This document shows positions 3,006 through 45,289 of a DNA stretch of 64,000 bases, piece after piece. Location of the stretch: the IMG/VR virus record IMGVR_UViG_2925908680_000001. The stretch is one strand, 5' to 3'. Origin of the DNA: a virus (taxonomy: Duplodnaviria > Heunggongvirae > Uroviricota > Caudoviricetes). The translations under genes were made by a program, and so were the position numbers. The notes under the pieces are model-generated. The model was not told where the DNA came from. It worked only from the letters and a program-made list of their open reading frames with translations, and ran no database searches. The first letter of the stretch is position 1; the number at the start of each line of letters is the position of its first letter.

Positions 3006-3023
3006 CGTTAGGTGTTTAATATT

Positions 3024-3040
3024 AATTTTCTAATATAATC
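3024..3040 (+). promoter_or_regulatory. Operator-like motif aattttctaatataatc (C1-operator-like family)
   Basis: Member of a recurring TTTCTAAYA motif; lies about 75 bp upstream of ORF 3114. Confidence 0.4.
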
Positions 3041-3113
3041 ATCTTTTTACCAGTCTATACAGTTTTAACATTCTCATTATCATCCCCTCGGTCATTTCCT
3101 GCCCGGGGGATTA

Positions 3114-10259: not shown

Positions 10260-10910
10260 ATGAATAACATGGCAACGAAAGAGCTTTTTAAGGTCCTTCC
10301 CAAATACAAAGCTCACAAAAACGTTAGTGCATCGAAAATCAAAAATGTTGTTATTTTCGGAGTAACTGATGACCCACTTTGGGGCTGCATCGAACTCGTT
10401 GAACCCAAAGGGGCAACAGTTTGTGTTGACGCAATTTTTTTACAAAAACACCGACCAAAAACTGGCGGGTATCTGATCGTTTATGAAAACGGTTATCTGT
10501 TCTATGCCCCGGAGAAACCATTTGAGCAATGCTATGGCCTGGTTAACGACGCCTCCGAAAATGGGGTATCGCTCAGCATTGAAGGTCACAATGGGGTGAC
10601 ATTCATTACAGCCAGGGACGTAACTATTGCTGTCGGTGGCATCATTACCACACAAGAAGAAATCGACCTTGAAGCAGCCGACTTTTCTGACGCGCTAATG
10701 TGGCTGAAAGAAGGAAAAAATGTAGCTCGACGCGAGTGGAAAGGCGAAAAGCAATTCTGCTGGTTAGTTCTCGCTGGGAGCGTCAATTTACATGACATTC
10801 AGGTTCCTTATGGTGACCATTTTGTGTTGAAAGATGCACAAAATATAAACAGCGTTTGGTTGCCGTCTGTTGATGATTTACTGGCTTGTGACTGGTTTGT
10901 AGTGGAGTGA
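10260..10910 (+). CDS. Hypothetical protein with C-terminal DUF2829-like domain
   Basis: C-terminal FSDALMWLKEGKNVARREWKG ... WLPSVDDLLACDWFVVE fits the DUF2829 signature as recalled; about 120-aa N-terminal extension. Confidence 0.55.
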   Translation: MNNMATKELFKVLPKYKAHKNVSASKIKNVVIFGVTDDPLWGCIELVEPKGATVCVDAIFLQKHRPKTGGYLIVYENGYLFYAPEKPFEQCYGLVNDASENGVSLSIEGHNGVTFITARDVTIAVGGIITTQEEIDLEAADFSDALMWLKEGKNVARREWKGEKQFCWLVLAGSVNLHDIQVPYGDHFVLKDAQNINSVWLPSVDDLLACDWFVVE

Positions 10911-13460: not shown

Positions 13461-14042
13461 ATGCCTAATCGCATTCCTCTCGATCCTGTATTGCCCAAGA
13501 ATTTTGACTGCACTCCTAACGAGAAACGCTCTAAAGCTCAGCTGGACGCCTGGTGGGACCATCCCTATGGGGTTACAGAACATGACGGGAAAATTGTTGT
13601 TTATTGTCTGAATGGTGGCGCGTGGGACCGTCCATCCGTGCTTGGTTTGGCAAATAACTATGATGAAGCCTGTGAACTTGCCGAAAGACAGCAGGCTAGA
13701 TGGGTGAATACACGGTCTGAACCGACATTCATGTTTTCAAAAGAACCGCCATTTATACTGGCGAGGATGCCGCAGCGACCGGATCATCAACAAGAAATTG
13801 TTGCTGAATTTTCCTCAAGGGATGAGATGAATCTCTTCTCATTAAAGCAGGAAGAAAGGGATCGCGTCGAAGTGTCTCCAACTCTCGACCACAACCAGAT
13901 GAACCTGGCCCAACTCGCCTGGTACAGCAAAGAATTAGAGATGTCTATTGCCCGACTTGAAAACGAAAAAGCCGCTATCCAAGCCCAGCATGAAGTAGTT
14001 CTGAACCGGATTAGAGAAATGCAAAACGATAATAGAGGCTAA
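13461..14042 (+). CDS. Hypothetical protein with C-terminal coiled coil
   Basis: ORF track; RBS aggaat before ATG; divergent from humD. Confidence 0.5.
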   Translation: MPNRIPLDPVLPKNFDCTPNEKRSKAQLDAWWDHPYGVTEHDGKIVVYCLNGGAWDRPSVLGLANNYDEACELAERQQARWVNTRSEPTFMFSKEPPFILARMPQRPDHQQEIVAEFSSRDEMNLFSLKQEERDRVEVSPTLDHNQMNLAQLAWYSKELEMSIARLENEKAAIQAQHEVVLNRIREMQNDNRG

Positions 14043-14102
14043 ATCGAGGTAGAAAACACATTGTTTAAGGCCACTAATTGTGGCCTCAAAGGGGAGAGAT
14101 GC

Positions 14103-14654
14103 TTATTGGCTATGGCTAAAAATCAAATGAGACACTTCATGTGGTTGTAGCTCGTCAAGATCCGGGGCCACAAAACCTTTTCCGAAAAACTTCACAAGTA
14201 ATTCACCAGCCGAATCATTGTCACCTATTACACGAAAGTCATACGGCAGCATCGCAAGTTGACGGCGTAATCCTGCGGAGAAAGTCGAACCTAACAGCGC
14301 CCACGAATTGCCGCCCGCGTTGTGTACAGCTGCGCTCTTAAAAATAGACTCAGTTATCCATATTGGGCCATCTTTTAAAGGAAGATAGGTTCCCCAAAGT
14401 AACTGTCTGCCATGTGATCGCGTGAAATACCGGGCCATCTTCGGATTGCTATGCTGCTTAGGAGCACCTGGTCTATATGTCTGATACCCAGCCAACATCC
14501 CATCAAACCTGTATAGAGGGAATGTAACTACTCCTTCACTTTCATCGATCCACTGTCTATATGGGTGTATATCATGGCGGTAGTTACGAGTTAGCAAATG
14601 AGCTTCCAGCTTTCCAAATTTTGTCATATTCCGTTCTTCCTGCATACTGGGCAT
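14103..14654 (-). CDS. Hypothetical protein, possible Toprim-like fold
   Basis: Segments IWITESIFKSAAV and FRVIGDNDSAGEL resemble Toprim E and DxD motifs; weak. Confidence 0.4.
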   Translation of the reverse strand: MPSMQEERNMTKFGKLEAHLLTRNYRHDIHPYRQWIDESEGVVTFPLYRFDGMLAGYQTYRPGAPKQHSNPKMARYFTRSHGRQLLWGTYLPLKDGPIWITESIFKSAAVHNAGGNSWALLGSTFSAGLRRQLAMLPYDFRVIGDNDSAGELLVKFFGKGFVAPDLDELQPHEVSHLIFSHSQ

Positions 14655-14929
14655 GTGTTCTCTGTGAAATATGGGAAACTATTATCCAGCTCATCTACCC
14701 ACTGTTTATGGTCGAAGCAGAAAAATATCTCCCACGGCATTCCATATTCTTCCATCCATAGGCGGATCTGCATTTCTATTGGAATCGGCGGTATTGCAGA
14801 CACCATATCAACAGGATAACAGTTCAGACGACGTTCCAGTTTTTCTACTCTCTTCTGGAGATGAAATATCCGATCCAGATGCACACGCCGCTCCCGTGCC
14901 ATTTTAAAATAAAGCTCGCCGGTCATCAT
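14624..14929 (-). CDS. Small coiled-coil plus C-terminal Cys-motif protein (paralog A)
   Basis: C-terminus WEIFFCFDHKQWVDELDNSFPYFTENTCPVCRK; paralogous to the adjacent ORF. Confidence 0.5.
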   Translation of the reverse strand: MMTGELYFKMARERRVHLDRIFHLQKRVEKLERRLNCYPVDMVSAIPPIPIEMQIRLWMEEYGMPWEIFFCFDHKQWVDELDNSFPYFTENTCPVCRKNGI

Positions 14930-15213
14930 TAACTCCTACATTCAGGGCAAGAGTTCCCTTCCGCAAAATAGGGGAAACTGCTATCAAGCTCATCACACCA
15001 TCTGCGATGGTCGTAGCACCAAAACGCCTCCCACGGTGCACGGAAATACTTCATCCACCAGGACACTCGATCAGGTATATCTGCTGGTGGCAGCTCTTCT
15101 GGCAATAATTTGCCTGATAATTCCCTTTCCGCCCGCGCCAGCATTCCTTTTAGACTCGCATTCTCTTTTTCAAGAATATCTATGCGCGCCTGTAACTCAG
15201 CTTTCGTTGGCAT
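14929..15213 (-). CDS. Small coiled-coil plus C-terminal Cys-motif protein (paralog B)
   Basis: C-terminus WEAFWCYDHRRWCDELDSSFPYFAEGNSCPECRS; start chosen at MPTKAEL. Confidence 0.5.
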   Translation of the reverse strand: MPTKAELQARIDILEKENASLKGMLARAERELSGKLLPEELPPADIPDRVSWWMKYFRAPWEAFWCYDHRRWCDELDSSFPYFAEGNSCPECRS

Positions 15214-15877
15214 GGTCCGCCTCATGCTTTTCAGCCACCAGCGGCAATAAAGCCCTGGCCATCTTATGAACCAACAGAGCATCGATAATGCCAAGCGTAT
15301 GCCCCGGCTTAATGTTTAATGCCGCCTCAAGGTGACACCTTTCCAGGTCACTTTTCTCGGCTTGTTTATGATGATCTGGCGTAATAACGTCGCCCAAAAC
15401 ACGGCTAATTCTTTCTCGTAATTGCTGGGTGCCTGCACACTTGATCGCTGTATCGTGGAGACGGTTAACCAGTTCGCGATAAACATGCGGCTTAATGCGG
15501 ATACGTTCACCGGTGACGCCCTTTCCTGGCGCTGGCACCGAACTATCCGGAATATCCGGATAGTTGCCAGCCTCGTAAGCTACCCGCAGCCAGTGCATGA
15601 ATGTTTCAGTGGACACACAACCACAGTCCACATCGATTTTTCCGCGTTGCTGTTCCAGCCACTGCTCAAAATTCAATCTACACGTATTACTTTCATGTTG
15701 CTCTTTTTGTCTCAAGGCCAGCACCTGTTGGGCCAGTTCCAGAACGATACCGGGTGACGCTAACCTCTCAAATTCCAATAAATAGTTTGCGTCAGGATGA
15801 CAAGTAGCCTCGCCTGCAAAAAATACCAATTGCTGTAAGTATGCTGTCGTTAGAGTAGTCATTTCTTTTTGCGCCAT
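15197..15877 (-). CDS. Hypothetical early protein sharing a C-terminal module with ORF 24369-24989
   Basis: Shared segment YRELVNRLHDTAIKCAGTQQLRERIS vs YRELVDALRDVAIECHGTDQLRARLS. Confidence 0.5.
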   Translation of the reverse strand: MAQKEMTTLTTAYLQQLVFFAGEATCHPDANYLLEFERLASPGIVLELAQQVLALRQKEQHESNTCRLNFEQWLEQQRGKIDVDCGCVSTETFMHWLRVAYEAGNYPDIPDSSVPAPGKGVTGERIRIKPHVYRELVNRLHDTAIKCAGTQQLRERISRVLGDVITPDHHKQAEKSDLERCHLEAALNIKPGHTLGIIDALLVHKMARALLPLVAEKHEADHANES

Positions 15878-16233
15878 TTCTTTTCACATTCCTTAGTCCA
15901 TTTTTCAATGTTCATTTTGGCAATATCAGTCATTCCATCACCTAAGAAATACTTTTTCCGGTACGTCTTGCACTTAAACCACACTACAACAGCCACCAGC
16001 CAGAAAATAAAAGGCCATACGGCAATACCAACTCCAGCCGCGATAAAGCCCAATATCCATAAATGAAGCTCTCCAACTTCTGTTTCCGGCAATATTCTTA
16101 AAGAATTAAACAGCAGGCTGAACGAATGGTCGTATGCATTGGCAGTATAAGACATGCAATCCATATAATTAAAGTCATAGCCTGCGGCTGCCGCCCATAA
16201 TGGGCGGTCAAGAAAATGTTTTAGTGTCATCAT
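15859..16233 (-). CDS. Hypothetical membrane protein
   Basis: Hydrophobic stretch ILGFIAAGVGIAVWPFIFWLVAVVVWF; basic C-terminus. Confidence 0.45.
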   Translation of the reverse strand: MMTLKHFLDRPLWAAAAGYDFNYMDCMSYTANAYDHSFSLLFNSLRILPETEVGELHLWILGFIAAGVGIAVWPFIFWLVAVVVWFKCKTYRKKYFLGDGMTDIAKMNIEKWTKECEKKWRKKK

Positions 16234-16239
16234 ATTAAT

Positions 16240-16533
16240 TTAAGGTTCAGACCAGTTATCTTCAATAGCAATGCTTAATCTTTGTAGCCATTCTGCTAAT
16301 TTCAGCATTGCTTCTCTTTCGCTTAAACCACACGGAAAATCATCAAGCGATATTGTTGGCTTGAAGTTTCCCAAATTATCCATTTCAACGGTCAGATTTT
16401 GCTCCAGAACGGTATTTCTTACGCGGCTATTGTGCCGAAGCAAATATACTGAACGTGATTTATTGGTTTTGTGGTCGAACGTATATTCGGTAAGTATCAT
16501 CTGACTTCCGCCATGATTATTACCGCGCCACAT
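16240..16533 (-). CDS. Hypothetical protein
   Basis: ORF track. Confidence 0.4.
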   Translation of the reverse strand: MWRGNNHGGSQMILTEYTFDHKTNKSRSVYLLRHNSRVRNTVLEQNLTVEMDNLGNFKPTISLDDFPCGLSEREAMLKLAEWLQRLSIAIEDNWSEP

Positions 16534-16556
16534 AATTACTCCGTGTTAATTGAAAT

Positions 16557-16919
16557 TTAGCTATTAATCTTCACTTTTATCGCGAACACCTTTACCGGTT
16601 TATCACCGAAGTGTGGATGTGTGATTGTTTTTATTTCATATCCGTTATACGGGACGTCTATTCTGCGACTGGAATCGTCGCGCTTCGGATATCCCTTTGT
16701 GATAATCAGGCGGTCATATTCCCGGAACATGATTCGCTTATTCCAGTAGTCATTACACAAGCGATACTCTTCCGTTTTCTCTCCAGACTTCATCTGGTCG
16801 AAATATTCACCGTTAACTGCCAGTTGAAGGTTAGCCACGGTTAACCTCCTGCGGTGGTTCCGGTAGCGGCATCCAGTGAGTTGCCTGCTCAATACCATTA
16901 CCCGGTTTAATCGTTGCAT
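16557..16919 (-). CDS. Hypothetical protein (true start probably internal)
   Basis: ORF track; overlaps the upstream gene. Confidence 0.4.
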   Translation of the reverse strand: MQRLNRVMVLSRQLTGCRYRNHRRRLTVANLQLAVNGEYFDQMKSGEKTEEYRLCNDYWNKRIMFREYDRLIITKGYPKRDDSSRRIDVPYNGYEIKTITHPHFGDKPVKVFAIKVKINS

Positions 16920-18075
16920 CTCCGCGCCGAAAGGTGCTTCCGGTATAGCGTGCGGAGCATATTAGCGGTTCAACCAGAGAGCTATCGAAATTCACCGAAA
17001 TAAGCACGTTCTGGCCCTTTTCAGGCATTCGCTCACTACAGCTTATCCAACTATCCGAAATTACCGGAGAGTTTACGGCTAACGAGCGACCCAACTCAGC
17101 GCGGGCTTGCCAGGCTAACCAGGCAGCGTTTTTTGCGCCAACACCAGCTATGGGGAGGTTCTCGTCGTTATTCCAGGCATTGAAAGCTGCACGTTCATCA
17201 AGCCCAACAGGTACTACTGCCAACTGACTGGCATATTTGTTAATGGTAACGATAAGCTCTTGCTCAGCCTCATCCAGACAATCACCGATACCTCGCCTGT
17301 CACCGTCAAAATCATCGAAATCGGCACGAATCTTGGCAACCTTCAGGATTGCGGACAACACCTCACTAAGAATTACCGGATAGTTGGTTGACGTTTCCGC
17401 GATTTCCCGAAAATTATTGGTTGATGTTTCCGCGATTTCCCGAAAGTTTCCGGCATGAAGCATAGCCGCGCGGCAGGCGTTCCAGCCACCACGAAACCCA
17501 TTAGCCCATGCATCACTTTTCGGTAATTTCTCCATTAAATCATCAGCAATTTCCCCAGGTACTACCGGCACTGGCTTGGCGGTATAAAGCGGTGTTATAT
17601 CTGCCCGAAAATTACATGCTTTATGCAGCCGCACCCACCGTTCGACTTCTGCTTTGTCAAAATACATACCAGTGAACGTGTTATATTCACGGTCAATTTG
17701 CGTGAATGTTACCTTCCACGCCACCGGCTCTGCTTCCAGCGATGCCAGCGCAATTCGTGCCAGTTCTTCCGCTTCTTCTGCTGGCAGTACAACGTTGCTA
17801 CCCGGTCCGTATGTTTCGCGCCACTGCTTGATTGTCAGCAGTCGCTCTTTGGTTATAGTGGTCATGGGTTTTCCATCCGCCATCTCTTCATCGGTTTCCC
17901 ATAAAACTCGCGCCTGCCCCTCACAGACTTGAATGACTCCGCCACGACCGCAGGAGTTGCACTTAACGGCATCGTCATCCCACAAGGCGGTTTCATTTCC
18001 GCGAGCTGTTTTGACCGTGTGTGATTTATTCCCGCAGCGGCATTTGTTGAGCCAGTCAATAGTGAAAGTTTTCAT
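16831..18075 (-). CDS. Ea22-like early protein with DUF551-like C-terminus
   Basis: C-terminal ...ATHWMPLPEPP pattern; internal tandem duplication NFREIAETSTN x2. Confidence 0.5.
   Translation of the reverse strand: MKTFTIDWLNKCRCGNKSHTVKTARGNETALWDDDAVKCNSCGRGGVIQVCEGQARVLWETDEEMADGKPMTTITKERLLTIKQWRETYGPGSNVVLPAEEAEELARIALASLEAEPVAWKVTFTQIDREYNTFTGMYFDKAEVERWVRLHKACNFRADITPLYTAKPVPVVPGEIADDLMEKLPKSDAWANGFRGGWNACRAAMLHAGNFREIAETSTNNFREIAETSTNYPVILSEVLSAILKVAKIRADFDDFDGDRRGIGDCLDEAEQELIVTINKYASQLAVVPVGLDERAAFNAWNNDENLPIAGVGAKNAAWLAWQARAELGRSLAVNSPVISDSWISCSERMPEKGQNVLISVNFDSSLVEPLICSARYTGSTFRRGDATIKPGNGIEQATHWMPLPEPPQEVNRG
17385..17450. repeat. 33-bp in-frame tandem duplication inside ORF 16831-18075
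   Basis: ttggttgacgtttccgcgatttcccgaaaatta followed by ttggttgatgtttccgcgatttcccgaaagttt. Confidence 0.8.
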
Positions 18076-18341
18076 GATGCCTCTCCTTTACCCGCTGCTT
18101 TCGCCTGCTCTTTAGCAAGTCGCTCCGCTTCTCTGAAATCCCAATCCACTCGATGTGCTATATCAATTGCAGAGCGCACGGTTCGCTCAATTAGCGTATC
18201 CAGATTGTCAATTGTCATTGCCATATCTGGATTGCGAGATAAAATCTCCGCCCTCTGAATCTGCCAGTTGTTGCAGGTTTCAAGTAATGAGTTAGCCATA
18301 TCACTCTCCTTTGATGCGAATGCCAGCGGTGCGGGAATCAT
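18072..18341 (-). CDS. Hypothetical protein
   Basis: ORF track. Confidence 0.4.
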   Translation of the reverse strand: MIPAPLAFASKESDMANSLLETCNNWQIQRAEILSRNPDMAMTIDNLDTLIERTVRSAIDIAHRVDWDFREAERLAKEQAKAAGKGEAS

Positions 18342-19053
18342 TCCATCGCTTTACTTCTTCACGAATTACGTCAATGCATTCTTTCGAATCCATTAGGTAA
18401 TCTTCATCAAAAAGACGTTCCTGTTCGTTTTCTATCGCAACAATGATTGCTTCAACTAACTTTTGTGCCTGAGAATCACTTTCTAACTCTGCTATGCGCT
18501 TCTCTGCGGCTTCCAGCTTCTCGCGCATATCGTCAACGTACTCGACCAGAGATCCGCCAGCAGGAATTTCGCACTCCTCGACCAGTTGGAAGTAGATATC
18601 AGCTGCGGCCCGTGTGTTGCTATGCCTTGCGTCGCCCATCTCACCTTCACGAAGAGCATCGCGTTCGGCGGTAAGATTGGCTATTTTGCTGTCTTTGCCT
18701 TCCAGCTCAACGCGCAGCCTCCCAACCGTTAGCGCAATTTCCTCGTTCTCCTGGTCGCGGCGTTTGATGTATTGCTGTTTTCTTTCCAGCTCATCCAGCA
18801 GCGCCAAGACGGTAGCCGGATTGGCTGCGGCGATGAATTCAGCATTGGCCTGCTGTTCCATTTGGAAATCTTCATCGAAACCGCTTTCTGGATGCGCTCC
18901 TTCAATTCTGCAAATTGGAAGATATCCAACAACCTCACGATGAATTAGCGCATCATCACCATCAAATCGGCCATTTCCATATTCGAGCGACCACACACCA
19001 CACGTTGCTTTCTCTGCCTTTTCACGCAGTGCCTGATAGTCAATCTTGTTCAC
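18301..19053 (-). CDS. Ea22-like coiled-coil protein
   Basis: N-terminus MNKIDYQALREKAEKAT... shared with neighbouring paralogs. Confidence 0.5.
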   Translation of the reverse strand: MNKIDYQALREKAEKATCGVWSLEYGNGRFDGDDALIHREVVGYLPICRIEGAHPESGFDEDFQMEQQANAEFIAAANPATVLALLDELERKQQYIKRRDQENEEIALTVGRLRVELEGKDSKIANLTAERDALREGEMGDARHSNTRAAADIYFQLVEECEIPAGGSLVEYVDDMREKLEAAEKRIAELESDSQAQKLVEAIIVAIENEQERLFDEDYLMDSKECIDVIREEVKRWNDSRTAGIRIKGE

Positions 19054-19643
19054 TGGTTGCCTCCTTTGCGAAGCTGGGCGGCGAACTCGTTAAGTGATAT
19101 GTAGCAATCTCCAAATGTTAACGAACCGCTCGACCGCATATGCTCCATAGCCATCTCCACGCCCTGCGCCCGTACTTCAGCCAGGAAAGCGTCGGTAGCT
19201 GGCGTTTCGCTGTGGTGCAGGGCATCATTAATAATCATCGCAGCAACTCCGGCCTGCCCTGCATCCGTGACCGACACATGCTCAAGAGTTACGGCCATTG
19301 CGTGTTTCAGCCCAGCGTTCTCTGCCACCAGCGCAGCGAGATTAGTCTCAAGCTCTGAAATTCGGCACGTGGCATCAATATTTGTGTCCTCCAAGCACTT
19401 AATTTCACCAAGCAGCTCCAGTGCAACCTTTGGGTTGAACGCGGCAACATGACGAGCGTTGTTCTCTGCATTTTTCTGTCCATCAAAGCCGGTCCATTTG
19501 ATAACGTCTTCACATCGTTCATCACCGGGCGTGCGCACCGCATAAGTACCAGTATCCGTCGAAATAAATGCGACCCATTCGTCTGGTGTTGCCTTTTCTG
19601 CCGCCTCACGCAGTACCTGATAGTCAATTGTCATTCTCGCCAT
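19050..19643 (-). CDS. Ea22-like protein
   Basis: N-terminus MARMTIDYQVLREAAEKAT; C-terminal [16 protein letters not shown] module shared with ORF 23095-23706. Confidence 0.5.
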   Translation of the reverse strand: MARMTIDYQVLREAAEKATPDEWVAFISTDTGTYAVRTPGDERCEDVIKWTGFDGQKNAENNARHVAAFNPKVALELLGEIKCLEDTNIDATCRISELETNLAALVAENAGLKHAMAVTLEHVSVTDAGQAGVAAMIINDALHHSETPATDAFLAEVRAQGVEMAMEHMRSSGSLTFGDCYISLNEFAAQLRKGGNQ

Positions 19644-20275
19644 CCTTCACAGTTGTAATCACTACAGCCTTCAAAATCATATGGGCTGTACTGCCAGGTG
19701 ATTTTTCCGCAATGCGGACAATTCCAGCGCACCTTCCCGCTTCGTGACTTCTTTCTTCTGTTTTGCTTTTTCAACCAGTCAGGCATGATCAAACCTGCGC
19801 CCTGAACCATTGTTCTGCGGTTAAAATTATTGATATTGAACGTCCGCCGCTTTGCTGCATCGGCAATGGAAAATGGCAACCAAACTATTCCTGGTTCGTT
19901 TTTGTTGGCGACGCTAAAGATGGTTGCTTTACTGAAGTCATCGGTTGGCAATCCACCGTGTTGAAGCCAGTAAACATCGTTGCCATTCCAGCAACCTTTT
20001 TTGTAGGCCACATACGCAGTGCAATCTGACTCAATCAGGCTTTCTGTAGGGATGTACTGGCAATCAACGTGCCACACTGCCATTGCATCCACGCTATCAG
20101 CGCAAACAGGCTGATCGATATCTCGACCACAATTCCAGGCTTTTTGGGCTTCTTCCAGCGTGTAAACATGAGCGCGATCGATATCAGAGCTGTAACCATT
20201 GCCGTTATGGCAATGGAATGAGGCGTTATTACCCACAGTTTCACGCAAGCACATCATGTAAAAGCGGTTATTCAC
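19631..20275 (-). CDS. Cysteine-rich hypothetical protein
   Basis: ORF track; CxxC pairs including C-terminal NCPHCGK...GCSDYNCEGW. Confidence 0.45.
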   Translation of the reverse strand: MNNRFYMMCLRETVGNNASFHCHNGNGYSSDIDRAHVYTLEEAQKAWNCGRDIDQPVCADSVDAMAVWHVDCQYIPTESLIESDCTAYVAYKKGCWNGNDVYWLQHGGLPTDDFSKATIFSVANKNEPGIVWLPFSIADAAKRRTFNINNFNRRTMVQGAGLIMPDWLKKQNRRKKSRSGKVRWNCPHCGKITWQYSPYDFEGCSDYNCEGWRE

Positions 20276-20561
20276 TGGTTGCCTCCGCTTCCCACGTTTT
20301 CAGACTTTCACCACAGAACGGGCAAAATGAAACTCGAATCGGCGATTTAGAAAATTCACCAGACCGCAGCATGATCAGGTCCTGTGAATGAATTAATTCA
20401 TGGTTATAGATTTTGTATTTCAGCAGACCTTTCCGCGTCGTGTATTCAGCATCCTGCTCCAGGGATTGTGCCAACGCCGCGCACGGTTCTATTTTTTTGT
20501 CATTAATCAAACAAGTGGAGATTCTGCACTTTGCAGCTCCGTCACCATTACCTTGACTCAT
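20268..20561 (-). CDS. Small zinc-ribbon-like protein
   Basis: CxxC...CPFCG pattern. Confidence 0.4.
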   Translation of the reverse strand: MSQGNGDGAAKCRISTCLINDKKIEPCAALAQSLEQDAEYTTRKGLLKYKIYNHELIHSQDLIMLRSGEFSKSPIRVSFCPFCGESLKTWEAEATSE

Positions 20562-20574
20562 TGCATTGTTCCCA

Positions 20575-21570
20575 TCAGTTATTGAACGTGATCACTCCGC
20601 GCTCGATGGCGAAGTCGAAAAGCTGGTTGGCGGCTACGTAAAGGCGTATGCCATGTGCTTTTTCCCATGCCCGGACATCGTTTTCTGCGCTTCTGGCGCA
20701 TTCATCGCAAAGAGGAACGGCCCAGCGATCGTGTTCGTTTAACGAGCGGGCGCGGTACATGAACGGGTGGTTAACTTTGCCACCGCATCCGATGCACGGA
20801 CGAGAAACCACAAACCGGAGATAAGCCGGGCTTTTACCGAGGACCGCTTTTGGTCGGCGCATATACAGCAGGCCAGAATCCTCATCTACAGACAGGTTGA
20901 CGATCTGCTCTGCGGTTATGTCCACCAGCTCGCGCGTACTGCGCTCCCAGGTGATATCTGATTCTTTCAGCGTACCGGTAGGGATGTCAGTTTTTGGCTG
21001 ACAAAATGCAATGCGACCAGCTTCATCAGGCAGTTCGTCTTTAAGATTCCGGCGAATGGCCCAAAAGGTGAGTTCAACCATGCTCAGATCGCGATCTGGC
21101 GGAAGTTTTAACTCGCTGGCAGCCCAGTTCATAATCCAGTTGGCGCGATTCAGTGACAGTTGGTCTTCCAGCTTGCCGTATCCCTTCATCATGTATTCCG
21201 CATCATGCTTCCAGCACAGGCGAACGGCAGAACCGTTATAGAAGTGAGTGGTTAGCTGGTGGCTACAATCGCGCTTATCATGCGCCTGGCAATCGTGAAT
21301 GTTGGTGCTAACCCAGTGAACGATAGAATCCTCGCCACCTAACGCATTAAATACGCGCTCACTTTGAAAAAAGGGTGTCAGTGACTGGTTGGCAACCAGG
21401 GAATAATTCAGGTCCACGACGCCATCAGGGGTGTTTTCAGCCTGTTCGCGCGGCAATGGGGAGATAAGAAAACGGCGACCGGCGCCGATGTAATTGCTGG
21501 TGGGCTTATCTACAGGAAAGACAGCCACACCAGTTTCATTTACGACATATGGGGTGATTATTGCACTCAT
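20575..21570 (-). CDS. Hypothetical protein with C-terminal zinc-binding/HNH-like region
   Basis: C-terminal CIGCGG...H...CDEC pattern. Confidence 0.5.
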   Translation of the reverse strand: MSAIITPYVVNETGVAVFPVDKPTSNYIGAGRRFLISPLPREQAENTPDGVVDLNYSLVANQSLTPFFQSERVFNALGGEDSIVHWVSTNIHDCQAHDKRDCSHQLTTHFYNGSAVRLCWKHDAEYMMKGYGKLEDQLSLNRANWIMNWAASELKLPPDRDLSMVELTFWAIRRNLKDELPDEAGRIAFCQPKTDIPTGTLKESDITWERSTRELVDITAEQIVNLSVDEDSGLLYMRRPKAVLGKSPAYLRFVVSRPCIGCGGKVNHPFMYRARSLNEHDRWAVPLCDECARSAENDVRAWEKAHGIRLYVAANQLFDFAIERGVITFNN

Positions 21571-21610
21571 AATGCATACCGACTCTGTTTTGTTCCGAGC
21601 GGTAAAATAA

Positions 21611-21656
21611 TATGTTAGAAAATTAAAATCAACAATCTAACACGATTTTGAGCGCG
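21611..21656. promoter_or_regulatory. Pair of operator-like motifs (tatgttagaaaatt and aatctaacacg)
   Basis: Recurring TTTCTAACA motif in both orientations upstream of reverse-strand ORF 20575-21570. Confidence 0.4.
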
Positions 21657-21674
21657 TAAACGATGTAACCCGGC

Positions 21675-22358
21675 TTACGGTTGCCCTCCCTTCACCTGCA
21701 TTAGCGTCAGGTTTCCGCAAAATACAGCACCAGTATCGATATAATGCTGGTTCCAGAATGCTTTTGGGCTTTTAGCCGGGGTGTGTCCGAAGATAAAGCG
21801 ATCTGCACCTGTAATTTCTTCACCGATGCCATCTATCGAATCACTAACACGGTCGCGCGACCAGATGACATTGAAAAGCGGCACAGCCTTACCGAACTGA
21901 TACTCTCTATCCGGATAGTCAGCATGAGCAATGACAATAGTCTCCTGCCCGGTGTTCAGCTCAATGATATGAGGCAATTGCCTTACCAGCTCCACCAGCG
22001 CCCTGGCTAAAACTTCCTTATCACTATCCAGCATAAAGAACCACTGGCCGCCATTCATTAGCCAGTTATTCACGTTTCCAGCTGGGCTTAACGCATCGAT
22101 CATCAACCGCTCATGGTTACCCATGACAGCCCGGAACCAGGGCATCTGCAATAACTCCAGGCATTCGACATTTTCAGTACCGCGATCGATAAGGTCGCCG
22201 ACTGATATCAGTAAATCCTGCGCCGGGTCAAAATCCACACGATGGAGTTCATTCATAAGCAGGGTGTAGCAACCGTGCAAATCACCAACAACCCATATGT
22301 TTCTGTATCCTGAACCATCAATACGGCTATATAACGCCTGGTCGTTAACGGTGATCAT
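21675..22358 (-). CDS. Ser/Thr protein phosphatase (lambda PPase-like metallophosphoesterase)
   Basis: Motifs GDLHG, GDLIDRG and GNHE in the translation. Confidence 0.85.
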
Positions 22359-22582
22359 TCTGCAACATCCTCCAAATCAGCAACCGCGTCCATCACATCA
22401 GAACCTCGAATAACTTCAAAAGCGCGGCAGGCCATTTGAAATACCTGTTGTTCTTGCGGGTGCGGAGACTCCCAATATTTGAAGCCTGGGCGATGCGTGT
22501 ACCCCATCATGGAATAAAAATCGCCAGCAAGTTCAATCGCGGCATCAACAAGTTCGCGATTAGTCATTCGCTTTGCTGCCAT
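22355..22582 (-). CDS. Hypothetical protein
   Basis: ORF track; overlapping-stop coupling. Confidence 0.4.
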
Positions 22583-22853
22583 TTGCTTTCTCCTGTCGGA
22601 ACATCACGATCATCAGGTCACCTTTTGTCGCTATCCTGGCTGTTGTGCCAGGCTCAATGCGGCTAAGTTCAAATGCGTCATAGAACGCCTCTAACGCTTT
22701 CTGGCGTATCTCCTGTTTGCGGCGCTTTCCCCACTGCTTTAGAAAAACAGAGGCCGCCCACTTCCCCGCACTGAACATGATGTAAAACCAACCGAGCAGG
22801 GCCAAACCTGTGTTGAGGGCCGTATCGATCGTTATCGTGGTGTCGATATTCAC
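22560..22853 (-). CDS. Hypothetical small membrane protein
   Basis: N-terminal hydrophobic segment LALLGWFYIMFSAGKWAASVF. Confidence 0.4.
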   Translation of the reverse strand: MNIDTTITIDTALNTGLALLGWFYIMFSAGKWAASVFLKQWGKRRKQEIRQKALEAFYDAFELSRIEPGTTARIATKGDLMIVMFRQEKANGSKAND

Positions 22854-23098
22854 TGTGGTGGCTCCTGCTTTTCTGCCTTCAATACCATGCGCGAACCATC
22901 ATCCAGCTCCCAATTAATTTCACCGCCTTCTTCCATGACCAGATGCCAGACGAGTTGAGCGGCCTCGTTGGTTACATCACGACCGCGATCATTGCCAACA
23001 CGACGTTTTGTTCCATCCCCTAAGTCACGCATTTTTGCCAACACGATGGTTTTTGATAGCGGTGAAAAACCAAGCTGTAGTCGTGCTGAATTGCTCAC
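22850..23098 (-). CDS. Hypothetical protein
   Basis: ORF track. Confidence 0.4.
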   Translation of the reverse strand: MSNSARLQLGFSPLSKTIVLAKMRDLGDGTKRRVGNDRGRDVTNEAAQLVWHLVMEEGGEINWELDDGSRMVLKAEKQEPPQ

Positions 23099-23706
23099 TG
23101 TTTCCCTCCCTTGCGAAGCTCTGCGGCAAAGTCAGTGGCATGTTCACCGAGTAGCTTCCAGTTATCGCGTATATCAGATGCAAATGACTGTTCAGATTTT
23201 GAGTTACATTTCTGTGCAAACATCTCCAATCCCTGCGCCCGGACTTCAGCCAGGAAAGCGTCGGTGGTTGGAGTCCCTTCAACCTTCAGCCCTATAGGGG
23301 CCAGGTAATACTTCAGCCCCGCATTCTCCGCCGCCAGCGACGCGCAATTACCCTCCAGCTCTGCAATGCGCTGTTTTGCAGCATCAAGTTCAATCGATAA
23401 TTTTTCCAACTGCTCTTTATGCTTCTTGTATTCCTGATATGCGTGCCAGGACTGACCTTTGCGCACACTATCAGTAATATCAGTAATCTGTTCTGGTGTT
23501 AGCGTGGTTAGTGGCTGTGCTGGGAAAATCAGCACTTTCCCGGAATCCCAATCAAAACCAGCGTGAATTGACTGAACCTCAACTGAGGGTGTTGAACCAA
23601 TGCTGCCAGGCGAATGAACAACGATCGTTACATCCATATCGCGACGATGGCTGTGGTTGTTGGACAAAATACGATTCACCAACTCAGAAAATTTGGAAAA
23701 TTTCAT
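23095..23706 (-). CDS. Ea22-like protein
   Basis: Start chosen at MKFSKF; coiled coil; C-terminal module shared with ORF 19050-19643. Confidence 0.5.
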
Positions 23707-24065
23707 GCTGATTCCCTTTGCTCTTCCTGGATAATATTGTTGCAATCTTTCACGCACTCGTTGCAGATGAAAACGTTGTCCCCGGCAATTAACTTTTTAA
23801 CGGTGTGCTGGGATTTGTTGCAGAAGCTGCAATAAAGCGTTGGACTGGCTGATACGGATTGTGCGCCAGATGTCAGCCGCGCGATGTCGTTCTTGCGACG
23901 CAATATCACACGGCTGCACTCGACCAGCATCTCCGGGGATATCTTCTCCTCCGTAGCGAGCGTTTCTAATCGTTCGAGTATGTGGAAGGCTTTTTCCTGG
24001 GTAATCCTGGGTAATTCAGCGTTACGCTCTGCCAGTTGTGCGGGCGTTAAACCTTCAGACTTCAT
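23703..24065 (-). CDS. Small protein with C-terminal ClpX-type C4 zinc-binding domain
   Basis: [34 protein letters not shown] closely parallels the ClpX N-terminal zinc-binding domain [34 protein letters not shown]. Confidence 0.6.
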
Positions 24066-24372
24066 ACACTCTCCTTTCGAAATAAACGTACTGATTAATC
24101 ATGCCCAGGGGCATTTCGAGTTTTTCCGCGATCTCACGGCGGGGAACACCACACTGATGAAGCTGCCGTGCCAGTTCTATATCGCTCTGCCGGTATTTGG
24201 CTGACGGATGAAAGTCTCCTTTCAGAATCATGCTGATCCCCAGCTCCCGCGCTTTAGTCCTGACGGCATCACCGGTACGACCGATCAGCTTCCCAATACT
24301 CTCTACCGTCATAGTTCCGGCGCACTGGCGGAGTATCATGATTTCTGCCCTTCCCCATCCCCGCCAGCTCAC
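24055..24372 (-). CDS. Putative DNA-binding regulator (two HTH-like segments)
   Basis: ORF track; helix-turn-helix-like stretches. Confidence 0.45.
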
Positions 24373-24989
24373 GCCGACATCCTCTGAGACATAAACTCCA
24401 CAAAACGAACTGCATCTTCAGAAACAACGCCGCATGACTTCAGATAATTCATTGCGTCATCAGGTAGCGGATTAGTTGGTTCGGCATTTGCCAGGGATTG
24501 AGATAAACGCGTGATTAATTTGACCATTCTCCGCTGCCGGAGGTTGTATCCTTCAGCTAAAGACAGGTAACTGGAAAGGGTATTGCTTAAGCGGGCGCGA
24601 AGCTGATCCGTGCCGTGACATTCAATAGCAACATCACGTAACGCATCGACCAGTTCACGGTAAAGATGCGCTGCCATTCTGCAATCTGTGTCAGATGGTG
24701 CTTCATAAATTACCGTCAACCCCAGTTTTTCAGCCAGAGCGTGTTCTGCACGTGCTCCTGCGGACACATCCCATCCCTTAAGCAGATAGATCGCATCAGC
24801 AGAACGCACCATTGCCAGGCAAATATCCATGTATTCACTCTGACAAAGGCCACCAGGTAACACAGCTGGATTCAGAACGATATGCCCTTCAGCCATCAGC
24901 TCGCTCGCTTTCGCATTAAACGCCGCACGGTTGTAATCTGGATAACCAGTCATCGGCCCCGCGATGTAAATTTTCAAAACACGTTTCAC
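24369..24989 (-). CDS. DUF4406 (nucleoside 2-deoxyribosyltransferase-like) domain protein
   Basis: N-terminal KIYIAGPMTGYPDYN...VLNP pattern; start moved to the internal ATG with RBS gggga. Confidence 0.6.
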   Translation of the reverse strand: MKRVLKIYIAGPMTGYPDYNRAAFNAKASELMAEGHIVLNPAVLPGGLCQSEYMDICLAMVRSADAIYLLKGWDVSAGARAEHALAEKLGLTVIYEAPSDTDCRMAAHLYRELVDALRDVAIECHGTDQLRARLSNTLSSYLSLAEGYNLRQRRMVKLITRLSQSLANAEPTNPLPDDAMNYLKSCGVVSEDAVRFVEFMSQRMSA

Positions 24990-25147
24990 CATCAAAATTT
25001 CCCCAAAATCGTGACGCAAAACATAAGCACTGCGAAAAGCTCAATACCAAGCTCAAGTAGCGCCAACGCCCCGAAAAACAACACATAGAACAGGCCAATC
25101 TCATTCACAGATGGCTGGTGGATCGCACTTAAAGCTATAAGCATCAT
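24990..25147 (-). CDS. Small hydrophobic peptide (about 52 aa), first gene of the reverse-strand early operon
   Basis: Hand-translated MMLIALSAIHQPSVNEIGLFYVLFFGALALLELGIELFAVLMFCVTILGKF; strong RBS ggagga; stop overlaps downstream ATG. Confidence 0.35.
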
Positions 25148-25185
25148 GTCCTCCAAACAGTTATCAGGAATGATATTAATGTTTT

Positions 25186-25222
25186 GTGTTAGAAAATCAA
25201 TTTTGAATATCTAATCATTTTG
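25186..25222. promoter_or_regulatory. Operator-like motifs in the divergent promoter region between the early operon and ref
   Basis: tgtgttagaaaat (reverse orientation) and atatctaatcatt (forward). Confidence 0.4.
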
Positions 25223-25264
25223 ATCAATCATAGAAAAATCGCTGAAAAGTAAGAGGCAGCCATC

Positions 25265-25843
25265 ATGCAGAAACAGAGCTATTGGGAGAAACAGAGACAA
25301 AAAGCCATGCAAAAATTGGCTGACCCAGCCTGGCGAGAGGAACAAAGGGCAAAGCGCCTTCAACAAGCTCAACGCCAGCAGCAGCGAGCGAGAGAAAAAG
25401 CCGCATCGCCTGAATATCGGCAAAAGAAAATTGAAAAAGCAAAGCAATATGAACAGCGGAGAAAAGATAAAGCTGTATCCGCTCCGTCCAAAAAAACACG
25501 CACGTCACGCGGCCTGAAAGGCAGATCACTCACAGCCGATGAACGCCGGATACAGACCGCTATCGGTGCTCTCCCCTGCATTGCCTGCCATATTCACGGG
25601 CAACATAGCCCAGTGGTATCCCTGCACCATATCTTCGGGAGAACGGCAGAGAACGCACATAGATATGTCCTCCCTTTGTGTAAATGGCACCACCAGTACG
25701 CAGCGCCAGCCGAGGTCCGAGAACAATATCCCTGGCTGGTCCCTGTTCATGCTGACGGAAAAATAGGCGGAAAAGCAGATTTCATGCGGCACAATGCCGA
25801 TGAAATGACGTTGTATCAGATGGCGATTGAATTGATAAATTAG
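25265..25843 (+). CDS. ref: HNH-type endonuclease, Ref-like
   Basis: Basic low-complexity N-terminus then HNH-like core (CIACHIHG...HHIFGR...CKWHH). Confidence 0.6.
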   Translation: MQKQSYWEKQRQKAMQKLADPAWREEQRAKRLQQAQRQQQRAREKAASPEYRQKKIEKAKQYEQRRKDKAVSAPSKKTRTSRGLKGRSLTADERRIQTAIGALPCIACHIHGQHSPVVSLHHIFGRTAENAHRYVLPLCKWHHQYAAPAEVREQYPWLVPVHADGKIGGKADFMRHNADEMTLYQMAIELIN

Positions 25844-25857
25844 TTTTCTAACATTTT
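25842..25857 (+). promoter_or_regulatory. Operator-like motif agttttctaacatttt
   Basis: Recurring motif downstream of ref. Confidence 0.4.
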
Positions 25858-26174
25858 AAGTTGAATTGTAAATTTCTCCGATGTACATTCACTACCGATT
25901 GGCACACCGGTCAACTTTTTGAGACAAACTGTTTAGTTTTTCGTATTATTGCCGCCGCTATACCTATGGCGGTGCAATATAGGTGGCTGAAAAGCCCCCG
26001 TTGACTCACGGTGTTCCAGCCTTTATTGCGCCGCCACCAGACCGTGGAACAGTCGATGGCGGCTCCGAAAGCAAGGAGTCACCACACTATGAACAGCTAC
26101 TGTCTTTTCCCATCACTCGTTGTCCGCCACTCACGCGATAATCTGCATTCTTTACTCGCGCTGGGGGTGTCAAA

Positions 26175-26342: not shown

Positions 26343-26446
26343 AATACTGACTGTTGCGCCCTGGCATTATCGTGGGGTATATTTCTACGGCACCTTAGAA
26401 AAACGGGTGCCGGGATTGGAACCCCGGATAATGCAAAAGGCGACAC

Positions 26447-26470
26447 AGACGCCGAAAGCGTCTTTTTTTG
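26447..26470 (+). terminator. Rho-independent terminator
   Basis: gacgc-cgaaa-gcgtc followed by ttttttt. Confidence 0.65.
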
Positions 26471-26499
26471 TGTCATGCCATCGCACAGCCATACGTAGC

Positions 26500-26625
26500 G
26501 TTTAGCTCAGAGATCAATGGTAGTGCTGGCTGGGCTGCCGAAAGGCAGGCCGGTTCCCTTTTGCGCCGGTAGTTCCAACCCAGTCAGTGCTACCGCCATT
26601 GAGATTGGAACCTCACGCGGTAGCT
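26500..26625 (+). ncRNA. Putative c4-like antisense RNA / target region of immunity module 1
   Basis: Structured leader upstream of icd; ggttccaa segments complementary to ttggaacc near the icd RBS; by analogy to P1 immI. Confidence 0.3.
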
Positions 26626-26654: not shown

Positions 26655-26870
26655 ATGGCTACTATCCCTACCCCAACTCATTCTGAATTTATCTGGCGTT
26701 TCTATTCCTGCCAAAAACACCTGTATATCTGCGTCATGGCTGCTACCGAAGCAGAAGCTCGTTCATACCTTCCTGAAGAACCCTGCATTTTTGCCGCACG
26801 CTTCACTCTTGATGCGATGGAGATCCTAAATTACTGGAATCTGCCAATGAACTGCGTGGAGGTGCACTGA
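26655..26870 (+). CDS. icd: Icd-like host cell division inhibitor
   Basis: 71 aa; immediately precedes and is coupled to the antirepressor gene (TGATG overlap), as in P1 immI. Confidence 0.65.
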   Translation: MATIPTPTHSEFIWRFYSCQKHLYICVMAATEAEARSYLPEEPCIFAARFTLDAMEILNYWNLPMNCVEVH

Positions 26871-27811
26871 TGAATCTGTCCATCTCTCAAAAAGCGACAA
26901 TGACCAGTATTGAGATCGCGGAACTGGTAGGTAAGCGTCATGATAATGTGAAGCGTACCATTGAAGTATTAACTAAAGGTGGTGTCATTCAATTTCCTCA
27001 AATTGAGGAAATTGAAAATAAACAATCAGTTGGCCCTCGTCGATTTTCCAAGGCTTACATATTTGAAGGCGAACAAGGAAAACGAGACAGCATCATTGTC
27101 GTCGCGCAGCTCTCTCCGGAATTCACCGCCCGGCTGGTGGACCGCTGGCGCGAACTGGAGAATGCCCGGGTACAGTTAAAATCAAAAGCCGAAATTCTGG
27201 CTGAAATGGCGCAAATGCATCTTGAGCATGAACGCCGGATCAACGCCGTAAATGCCCAGGTAGCCGAGGTATCAGCACAAGTATCGATGGTCGCTGAAAC
27301 ACTCGAGCAAATCAAGAAAGGCAATATTCCGGAAGGCTACATTGGCTACCGCCAGCTGGCGGCGAAATGTGGCCTGACTGAAGCCAAATGTCGCAACCTG
27401 GTTAACGCTTTCCGGATTCCCACCGATACGCATGAGTTTTTAACTCCAGATGGTTTGCTTGCGCGACGCTCCATTGTGGCCCTGGTCCCCTTCCGGAAAG
27501 CCTTTAAGCAGGTGATGTCGGAGGCAGAACCACGCAATAAACGCTGGTATCATCCAAAGATGGGGATGTTTCAGGCAATCCACCATCCTGTGCCTGAAAG
27601 CCCAAAGGATAATCTGTCACTACATACCGTCAGAGAGAAGATCAGGACTGGATACGCAACAGTGTGTCGTCGTTCTTCCTGGCCTGAAGGTATATGGGTG
27701 TGGCCCGAAGGTGGATCACGAAAGCACTGGCGCACCATCCGTGACGGGAAAATCCATGCTATTGATTTAGCTCCAGAGGATGTTATTGCTATGGACTGGA
27801 TTGTTAGTTAA
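26870..27811 (+). CDS. ant: Antirepressor (Ant-like) with Rha-type N-terminal domain
   Basis: N-terminus MTSIEIAELVGKRHDNVKRTIE; 313 aa; paralog at 45623-46549. Confidence 0.7.
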   Translation: MNLSISQKATMTSIEIAELVGKRHDNVKRTIEVLTKGGVIQFPQIEEIENKQSVGPRRFSKAYIFEGEQGKRDSIIVVAQLSPEFTARLVDRWRELENARVQLKSKAEILAEMAQMHLEHERRINAVNAQVAEVSAQVSMVAETLEQIKKGNIPEGYIGYRQLAAKCGLTEAKCRNLVNAFRIPTDTHEFLTPDGLLARRSIVALVPFRKAFKQVMSEAEPRNKRWYHPKMGMFQAIHHPVPESPKDNLSLHTVREKIRTGYATVCRRSSWPEGIWVWPEGGSRKHWRTIRDGKIHAIDLAPEDVIAMDWIVS

Positions 27812-45081: not shown

Positions 45082-45289
45082 AATTTGAATTTTCGAACAT
45101 AAATAATAAAATAAATCATCAAAAATTTGATGTTGATCTTCCATGTTTTCAGGCTTATATTCACGCCGTCGTAGCAAATTCTGCGACCGGGTTTAGCAGC
45201 CTGAATGATTGTGCGGACAACCGCAGATTTCCGATATTGCGGTATTTTTGTGTCCGTAAACCGCGTTACGCCCGAATTATGGTGGGGCG

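Follow-up and report, generated by a model that had tools for sequence, protein, structure and literature searches.

A variable, probably early accessory gene array between ref and humD in a D6-lineage phage-plasmid

Phage-plasmids of the P1/D6 type are common in Escherichia coli and Salmonella and move resistance genes, and their variable early region is their largest block of genes of unknown function. What does such a block consist of, how is it controlled and what is it for? We examined these questions in a 64,000-nucleotide stretch of tailed-phage DNA (IMG/VR virus record IMGVR_UViG_2925908680_000001; hereafter the window), in which the minus strand of positions 14103–25147 carries an array of 23 densely packed genes, here g1–g23, most of them uncharacterised. 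A first-pass annotation of the sequence had delimited this array exactly, from the ATG of g1 at 25147 to the final base of the g23 stop codon at 14103, and had described it as a single operon of about 25 genes, likely to be a reservoir of anti-defence and host-takeover functions. The genes are indeed small and tightly packed, if slightly fewer. We propose, with a probability of roughly 0.55, that the array is the early accessory region of a D6-lineage phage-plasmid, the counterpart of the ea/exo-xis regions of lambdoid and P22-like phages and exchanging genes with them, and that it encodes dispensable modulators under C1 repression.

Judged by its sequence, the window is a P1-related phage-plasmid of the D6 lineage. 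This assignment follows from three lines of evidence. The 11.3 kb around the array match Escherichia phage D6 and many ~90-kb non-mobilisable plasmids of E. coli and Salmonella, with patchier matches to P1, P7, SJ46 and RCS47; in D6 and in the best-matching plasmid, pKOr024_2, the annotated neighbours are ref and, at the opposite end, humD-phd-doc, and the window's array likewise lies between a divergent ref and hot/humD-phd-doc; and the window also encodes homologues of D6 c1, pacA/pacB and lpa. The corresponding D6 genes, orf88–orf105 between ref and hot/humD (NC_050154), have the same position, strand and flanks. They too begin with the 51-residue peptide, DUF4406 and helix-turn-helix genes, include DUF4752, phosphatase and DUF968 genes, and share the g9/g10-type gap and the intergenic sequence beside ref. 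D6 differs in its cassettes, as only 44% of the window's array aligns to it (at 91% identity). By the coverage test used, D6 is without g5, g6, g12, g13, g15–g20, g22 and g23; it has a DUF4014 gene and a longer PmgU-like orf104 that the window does not, and its ref-to-humD span is 8.9 kb against 12.0 kb here. The array is a lineage-typical early accessory region, already annotated in D6, ordinary in kind and by itself an expected feature of these phages. Its gene combination was seen nowhere else, with no record covering at least 80% of the array among 50,697 phage records, 72,556 plasmids and 5,426 E. coli genomes.

The extent of variation was assessed first in IMG/VR loci anchored on ref and on the Toprim gene (g23). 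There, g1–g3 and g7–g10 are nearly always present and the remaining genes are patchy, being partly common to P1/SJ46-like elements. Because the ref-anchored loci, with their 10-kb flanks, fall short of humD, we re-anchored on g10 and compared 23 complete ref-to-humD arrays, including this window, pKOr024_2 and D6. These arrays measure 6.4–12.6 kb, hold 17–29 open reading frames each and comprise 78 gene families overall, of which 10 occur in at least 22 arrays and 30 in only one. The 55 families of this pan-array that were additionally compared with Pfam contribute PAPS-reductase-like, PerC, DUF1382, DUF4014 and DUF7739 proteins and further DUF551 and Ea22 variants. Gene order is repeated in only one pair of arrays. 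One backbone order is nonetheless kept in 22 of the 23, this window among them: the 51-residue peptide, DUF4406 and helix-turn-helix genes, followed at a distance by DUF4752, a 75-residue protein, the phosphatase and DUF968. Across loci the flanks are conserved (ref at 91–99% identity, humD likewise) while the gene content between them varies, which is the hallmark of an accessory region. The description of the locus as an accessory, highly variable, single-strand array next to ref therefore holds. It is not variable throughout, however: about ten of the window's 23 genes are near-universal in D6-like arrays, as a conserved core would be, and 13 are variable. The comparison thus separates a stable ten-family backbone from swappable slots.

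Of the homology-block ends, 56% lie no more than 30 nucleotides (nt) from a gene boundary, where 14% would be expected, and this avoidance of gene interiors suggests selection for intact genes. Such selection bears on the idea that the array is functionless or near-neutral cargo, re-supplied by recombination with resident prophages and tolerated by a large P1-type capsid. The extensive mosaicism, the many singleton families, the dispensability of P1 homologues and the occurrence of pieces of the array in 3,769 of the 5,426 E. coli genomes, mostly on chromosomes, are what such cargo would produce. We nevertheless consider it improbable, given that every open reading frame is intact, that stops and starts overlap in a tightly packed series, that the ten most widespread families keep the same order, that g2, g4, g9 and g23 retain their catalytic or metal-binding residues, and that breakpoints spare gene interiors.

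Close relatives of some segments are also found outside the P1/D6 group. By megablast, segments of the array are 90–96% identical to DNA of Shiga-toxin (Stx), P22-like and lambdoid phages, in their early-left ‘ea’ or exo-xis regions. The matching DNA of the P22-like phage IME10 is flanked by int and kil, the location of the early-left ea region; the match in POCJ13, at the end of its record, gave no gene context. On the basis of this DNA identity and the int–kil context in IME10, the array is, in sequence terms, a counterpart of the early-left region, and it draws on a pool of genes in common with the corresponding regions of chromosomal lambdoid prophages. The latter (lambda ea22, ea8.5 and orf60a-73; P22 eaA–eaI; their equivalents in Stx phages) likewise consist of small non-essential genes on one strand. 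They have the Ead/Ea22, DUF551 and DUF4752 families in common with the array and are transcribed early under repressor control, as we predict for the window. Unlike them, the array is flanked by neither int/xis nor exo/bet and is not set in an N-antitermination context; lying between ref and humD, with no int/xis nearby, it is not a positional member of the ea/exo-xis region. It is also longer (11 kb, with two predicted promoters) and adds a nin-type phosphatase, a DUF968/HNH protein, a DUF4406 enzyme and a Toprim protein. The likeness to lambdoid nin/b-region arrays noted in the first-pass annotation thus reflects real DNA homology, but this homology is to the early-left ea/exo-xis genes, and only the phosphatase is nin-like. 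Exo-xis genes are the earliest expressed, are non-essential, and shift the lysis–lysogeny decision and host physiology (PMC7093339, PMC3824215, PMC8614690, PMC10789677, PMC9239242), the effects on lysogenisation and induction in this literature coming from lambda and Phi24B only.

A second point of comparison is P1, whose pmgN–pmgV and upfM–O operons are also made up of small genes of unassigned function that end at hot/humD and contain ppp, carry the C1 operators Oppp, OpmgR and OpmgT, and are individually dispensable. Reference P1 has in common with the window only ppp (86% identity, g9 encoding this close relative of the lambda protein phosphatase, 1G5B), the PmgT C-terminus and PmgU (92–96%) and PdcB (39%). 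The P1 block differs further in abutting tail genes and a late promoter, in having ref elsewhere and in its operator sequence. In-frame deletion of ppp, pmgT, pmgU, pdcB and 20 other pmg/upf genes leaves plaque formation and anti-restriction unchanged (PMC9024508), and a pdcB::kan P1 is viable. Dispensability of the array's genes is an analogy with these four P1 homologues, the only ones for which it is known.

The old P1 name pmg, for putative morphogenetic, would instead assign the array late or structural roles. The close match of g20 to the PmgT C-terminus and PmgU fits this idea, as does the fact that the P1 region is also reached from a late promoter, LPpmgL. Of the explanations that we weighed it is the least credible: P1 deleted for pmgT, pmgU or pmgS forms normal plaques and the main text of that study names no virion-associated protein from this region (PMC9024508), pmgR, the sole essential gene of the P1 region, has no homologue here, and the array contains no P1-type late-promoter box with a proper -10 element.

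How, then, might the array be switched on? Counting k-mers revealed a repeated motif, TTTGTGTTAGAAA, with nine sites in the window at up to two mismatches against 2.3 +/- 1.5 in shuffled sequences; none of 100 shuffles attained nine. All nine fall between genes. The c1 homologue has one of them 20 bp upstream, and an exonuclease-like gene (36012/36037) and an Ant-like gene (45066/45091) are each preceded by an inverted pair offset by 25 bp. Sites of the type TTTRYGTTAGAAA precede the c1, lpa, Ant-like and exonuclease-like genes, and weaker operator-like sites occur at 3023–3042 and 25841–25860. The motif also precedes c1 and lpa and stands beside ref in D6, and is absent from the homologous P1 region, in which pmgN–pmgV are annotated with the P1-type C1 operators Oppp, OpmgRa/b and OpmgT. 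It differs from the P1 operator consensus ATTGCTCTAATAAATTT, which has no match in the window at up to three mismatches, shorter cores yielding scattered chance matches only. We interpret the repeated motif as a candidate C1 operator of the D6 type.

Two of the places where it occurs belong to the array. Beside ref, a leftward promoter-like site (-35 TTGATT at 25200–25195, spacer 16, -10 TAATAT at 25178–25173) stands back-to-back with a rightward one for ref (TTGAAT at 25203–25208, AATCAT at 25226–25231). A perfect copy of the motif (25183–25195, plus strand) fills the spacer of the leftward promoter, and a weak inverted partner (25208–25220, minus strand), again at a 25-bp offset, overlaps the rightward promoter. 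This core block is invariant in 23 D6-like loci except at one G/A motif position, and the flanking bases vary. The second place is the g9/g10 gap of 104 nt, the sole gap longer than 25 nt in an array where 17 of the 22 gene junctions overlap, by 1–29 nt. A position weight matrix built from the nine sites gave an independent 20.6-bit match there, and inverted sites at 21609–21621 (plus) and 21634–21646 (minus), offset by 25 bp, bracket a minus-strand promoter-like site (TTGATT at 21632–21627, spacer 17, TATTTT at 21609–21604). Neither the inverted arrangement GTTAGAA-N13-TTCTAAC nor the two hexamers vary among the related loci examined, except that the left half-site of one locus has A in place of G. 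Since the operator-like motif overlaps promoter-like sites both beside ref and in the only large gap, the array probably comprises two repressor-controlled early units, g1–g9 and g10–g23, between which read-through is likely. The RNA fold of the gap is not significantly stable (z -1.9), and we therefore propose no internal terminator. Of the earlier description, a divergent promoter region shared with ref is borne out by the back-to-back hexamers and their operator-like motif, and the single operon gives way to these two putative units. The genes had also been called early, which is in keeping with the presence of the same motif before the c1 and lpa homologues and of C1 operators on the homologous P1 genes. 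Two minus-strand P1-type late-promoter boxes within the array were considered as elements of late control and set aside, both being without a usable -10.

We envisage that in the plasmid prophage a C1-type repressor most likely binds the operator pairs (core GTTAGAA, 25-bp offset) overlapping two sigma-70 promoters, of which the one back-to-back with the ref promoter would serve g1–g9 and the one in the g9/g10 gap g10–g23. Loss of C1, upon induction or in a newly entered naive cell, would allow both to fire, and the genes would then be co-transcribed and translated, aided by overlapping stop and start codons, down to a hairpin after g23. The backbone of about ten families would supply a small membrane peptide, an N-glycosidase-type enzyme resembling nucleoside 2-deoxyribosyltransferases and DNPH1, a helix-turn-helix protein, the DUF4752 and 75-residue proteins, a lambda-type phosphatase, a DUF968/HNH protein, Ea22-type proteins and a PmgT/U-like protein. 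Into the slots between them, recombination with other temperate phages would swap cassettes at gene boundaries. The products are pictured as non-essential proteins that modulate both host physiology and phage development, with phospho-signalling, nucleotide pools, ClpXP recognition, membranes and the lysis–lysogeny balance as likely targets, and some may counter host defences. Gene content, homologies, variability, breakpoints and the enrichment and conservation of the motif are observed; promoter and operator function, timing and each cellular role in this scheme are predictions.

Several considerations weigh against this model. A generic promoter scan flagged nothing in either control region and found fewer sites overall than in shuffled sequence, the promoter hexamers agree with the consensus at just 8 of 12 positions, and in this window ref has a weak second half-site (AAATGATTAGATA). 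The operator assignment draws on motif position and the analogy with P1. The lambdoid parallel covers just part of the gene set, in a phage-plasmid that is without int/xis or exo flanks, and the developmental role is extrapolated from Ea22 and orf genes of lambda and Phi24B, which have a Pfam family in common with g13/g14 and little sequence.

The same control regions bear on the word moron, which the first-pass annotation had applied to these genes and which we would not retain. The genes are without promoters and terminators of their own, with overlapping junctions and a single gap, and the promoters in front of them carry operator-like sites and are apparently repressed in the lysogen. It could still be supposed that the products are expressed in the lysogen, as morons or as prophage-encoded defence or exclusion functions from which the host cell profits; defence genes are frequent in phage-plasmids, g1, g7 and g19 resemble membrane proteins of the exclusion type, and g10 (HNH) and g23 (Toprim) have nuclease-type domains. 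This we regard as very improbable, since no array protein matches a PADLOC defence model, the genes sit behind putative operator-bearing promoters rather than individual ones, and the number of terminator-like hairpins across the scan does not exceed the chance level.

A further possibility, on which the original interest in the locus turned, is that the array is mainly a reservoir of anti-defence or host-takeover genes, each small protein neutralising an immune system or a host function. The hypothesis is reasonable because variable phage accessory regions have been published as rich in counter-defence genes (Silas et al., bioRxiv 10.1101/2023.04.06.535777). The signature reported there is one of rapid gene turnover between conserved flanks, which the window's array shows, together with early expression, which is probable for it. 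The window resembles those regions in its variable content between flanks conserved among related genomes, and is unlike them in its ten-family conserved backbone interleaved with variable slots; P1-like phages are unmentioned in that work. Plausible tools against host systems are at hand in the g4 copy of a ClpX N-domain, the g9 phosphatase and the N-glycosidase-type fold of g2 with its conserved Glu. In addition, the sole recognised anti-defence domain in the neighbourhood, a Tad2-like one (Thoeris anti-defence 2, PF11195, 4e-18), lies outside the array in a different, plus-strand operon that begins just after the operator-like site at 8870 and so has the same motif; it forms the C-terminal part of a 216-residue open reading frame (10260–10910, plus strand) beside a dUTPase gene (9751–10245).

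Searches within the array point the other way. None of the 23 proteins matched PADLOC models at E <= 0.01, and no anti-defence-named family was found among the 23 genes (Pfam, PHROG, NCBIfam, PDB) or the 55 further pan-array families (Pfam), a negative that is weak as it was obtained without a dedicated library of anti-defence profiles. P1 knock-outs of ppp, pmgT, pmgU, pdcB and the 20 others retain normal plaques and anti-restriction, about ten of the genes form a stable backbone rather than fast-turnover cargo, and the characterised lambdoid relatives act on development and the lysis–lysogeny decision rather than on defence (PMC7093339, PMC3824215). The anti-defence reading is thus plausible yet unsupported, its case here being one of genomic style, and as an account of the array as a whole we consider it unlikely.

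A narrower version, that the array includes at least one host-manipulation or counter-defence factor not yet recognised as such, is to our minds a tentative suggestion of similar weight, for which g4 is the clearest candidate and g2 the second. The C-terminus of g4 matches the zinc-binding domain of E. coli ClpX (Pfam PF06689 3e-17, PDB 1OVX 1e-13), and 30 of its 44 C-terminal residues (68%) are identical to residues 13–56 of E. coli ClpX, a match that the PDB results corroborate. In the model of g4, a helical hairpin is joined to a zinc-binding domain that can be superposed on 2DS6 with a root-mean-square deviation of 0.8 A, and the four Cys of a C4 zinc ribbon (C79, C82, C101, C104) are invariant. 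At 120 residues, with only the hairpin N-terminal to this domain and no AAA+ unfoldase module, g4 is a stand-alone copy and not ClpX. Full-length relatives occur only in phage-plasmids and prophages of Escherichia and Salmonella, often mis-named ‘carboxylate-amine ligase’. A literature search found nothing relevant tying phage-encoded ClpX zinc-binding domains to any function. Speculatively, g4 could act as a decoy that pairs with ClpX N-domains or soaks up the adaptors and substrates docking there (SspB, lambda O, MuA and UmuD), and would thereby redirect proteolysis by ClpXP at an early stage of the lytic cycle. Possible targets include ClpXP-sensitive proteins of the element itself, such as the Phd antitoxin and the UmuD'-like HumD.

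Residues 1–100 of g2 are modelled at a predicted local distance difference test score above 90, and Foldseek relates the model to nucleoside 2-deoxyribosyltransferase (2A0K, 3.5e-4), the CMP N-glycosidases MilB and BcmB, and DNPH1. Ser77, Gly79 and Glu83 are invariant in 32 sequences, forming an S-x-G-x-x-x-E-type motif whose Glu is predicted to be catalytic, as in the family. By its modelled fold and this conserved Glu, the N-terminal domain belongs to the nucleoside 2-deoxyribosyltransferase/DNPH1/MilB superfamily; it recurs in many prophages, alone or with other tails. An enzyme of N-glycosidase type could destroy modified nucleotides or nucleotide-derived immune signals. As regards g9, a recent anti-defence ‘phage phosphatase’ is a Macro-domain enzyme, and a mycobacteriophage metallophosphoesterase-like protein is reported to damage host DNA; neither has a direct bearing on lambda-type protein phosphatases. 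The literature search returned nothing relevant linking DUF4406, DUF551, DUF968 or DUF4752 to any function. The stand-alone ClpX N-domain, the lambda-type phosphatase and the DNPH1-like enzyme are thus three tractable proteins in this region, alongside the likely repressor operator predicted at its two promoters.

The remaining genes are listed in Table 1. All 23 proteins match PHROG phage families (E <= 1e-29), and Pfam families were found for g2, g4 (ClpX zinc finger), g6, g7, g9 (Metallophos), g10, g13/g14 (Ead_Ea22) and g16. Searches of the array proteins against PDB sequences gave matches for g4 and g9 only, NCBIfam added nothing beyond the ClpX and phosphatase matches, and Rfam identified no RNA family within the array. 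The gene identities first put forward stand up well to these searches, from the small hydrophobic peptide, DUF4406 and ClpX-type proteins to the Ser/Thr phosphatase, the DUF551-like C-terminus of g16 and the Cys-rich proteins (g11, g12, the N-terminus of g16, g21 and g22); for the helix-turn-helix regulator g3, the identification comes from its PHROG match. The Toprim assignment of g23 agrees with its PHROG family, with a 99% identical RefSeq protein named ‘toprim domain-containing’ and with E and DxD motifs visible in the sequence. Ea22-like paralogues with shared modules were likewise recovered: g13 and g14 are placed by Pfam, and protein modules are common to g5/g13, g13/g14, g21/g22 and g2/g20, with DNA also 81–89% identical for the first two pairs. 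g5 is 42% identical to g13 over 115 residues, its DNA matching the 3' end of g13, and the g2/g20 module is a helical stretch of 40 residues at 50% identity, the same part of g20 being homologous to P1 PmgU.

Table 1. Genes and control features of the array. Coordinates refer to the window; array counts refer to the 23 complete D6-like arrays.
Feature	Coordinates	Strand	Basis and remarks
Candidate D6-type C1 operator TTTRYGTTAGAAA(A)	7460, 8870, 25183, 29232, 36012/36037, 45066/45091, 47001		also 21609/21634
ref/g1 control region	25173–25231		leftward promoter-like and rightward ref promoter-like sites, two operator-like sites; function predicted
g1, 51-aa hydrophobic peptide	24992–25147	-	phrog_8890 1e-33; Kyte-Doolittle maximum 2.3; 23/23 arrays
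g2, DUF4406 / nucleoside-2-deoxyribosyltransferase-like domain and helical tail	24369–24992	-	Pfam 1e-33; 22/23 arrays
g3, probable helix-turn-helix protein	24055–24372	-	phrog_323 ‘transcriptional regulator, D5-like’ 6e-29; no Pfam match; 22/23 arrays
g4, helical hairpin and ClpX-type zinc-binding domain	23703–24065	-	Pfam, PDB, model; 8/23 arrays
g5, Ea22-type C-terminal module	23095–23706	-	phrog_6026, phrog_368
g6, DUF7446	22850–23098	-	Pfam 3e-17
g7, DUF4752	22560–22853	-	Pfam 3e-39; 23/23 arrays
g8, 75 aa, function unassigned	22355–22582	-	phrog_4132 2e-40; 22/23 arrays
g9, lambda-type Ser/Thr protein phosphatase (P1 Ppp / NinI-like)	21675–22358	-	PDB 1G5B 2e-93; 23/23 arrays
g9/g10 gap control region	21604–21646		inverted operator-like sites bracketing minus-strand promoter-like site; function predicted
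g10, DUF968 / HNH-type (P1 PdcB-like)	20575–21570	-	Pfam 3e-44; phrog_96 ‘HNH endonuclease’ 9e-103; 23/23 arrays
g11, 97-aa Cys-containing protein	20268–20561	-	phrog_4030 2e-40
g12, 214 aa, 11 Cys, C-terminal CPHC...C..C motif	19631–20275	-	phrog_2457 3e-118
g13, Ead/Ea22-like	19050–19643	-	Pfam (PF13935) 9e-24
g14, Ead/Ea22-like	18301–19053	-	Pfam (PF13935) 4e-29
g15, 75 aa, function unassigned	18072–18299	-	phrog_10585 2e-41
g16, mosaic, 414 aa: N-terminal Cys cluster, 33-nt tandem duplication, C-terminal DUF551	16831–18075	-	Pfam 1e-21
g17, ASCH-like, 93 aa	16557–16838	-	phrog_625 5e-48; 91% identical RefSeq protein named ASCH; no Pfam match
g18, 97 aa, function unassigned	16240–16533	-	phrog_1258 9e-48
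g19, 124-aa membrane protein	15859–16233	-	phrog_2638 2e-61; Kyte-Doolittle maximum 2.4
g20, PmgT-C-terminus/PmgU-like	15197–15877	-	PHROG and P1 comparison
g21, coiled coil and C-terminal Cys/His module	14929–15225	-	phrog_3797 1e-56
g22, tandem paralogue of g21	14624–14929	-	C-terminal Cys/His module, 53% identity over 53 aa
g23, stand-alone primase-type Toprim domain	14103–14627	-	phrog_849 DNA primase 5e-52; 2/23 arrays
Hairpin terminator	14064–14090	-	strong; 11-bp stem, 5 GC pairs; after g23, before convergent gene 13461–14042

Some observations concern single genes and loci. g12 is found in 2 of the 23 D6-like arrays, and copies 96–99% identical to it occur in P1/SJ46-like loci. The duplication in g16 (17384–17448, 33 nt, 94% identical) causes the peptide NFREIAETSTN to occur twice. 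In a group of P1/SJ46-like IMG/VR contigs (loci L053–L077), only the last 66 residues of g23 are represented, at 85–88% identity and apparently as the tail of a different gene, which suggests a mosaic junction inside a gene where the array ends distally. A scan of genome contigs with Ref gave one match (L003), in a metagenome-assembled genome labelled ‘Actinomycetes bacterium’, in which the end of a 3.2-kb contig (JAFAFN010000164.1) encodes the first 19 Ref residues at 95% identity; this spurious match most likely reflects enterobacterial phage-plasmid DNA mis-binned into an actinomycete genome.

Elsewhere, the window has C4 antisense-RNA immunity modules at two distinct places (Rfam C4, 26513–26600 and 45275–45360). 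The first (26390–26600) is accompanied by an isrK-like small RNA (26390–26468) and the second (45155–45360) by a c4-a1b1 target element (45155–45207), and each is followed by an Ant/Rha-type anti-repressor gene (26870–27811 and 45623–46549, respectively). Reference P1 has one immI region. Finally, four tRNA genes at 97–342 and 1508–1580 lie upstream of the lpa-pacA-pacB-c1 block, and a tRNA cluster is equivalently placed in D6.

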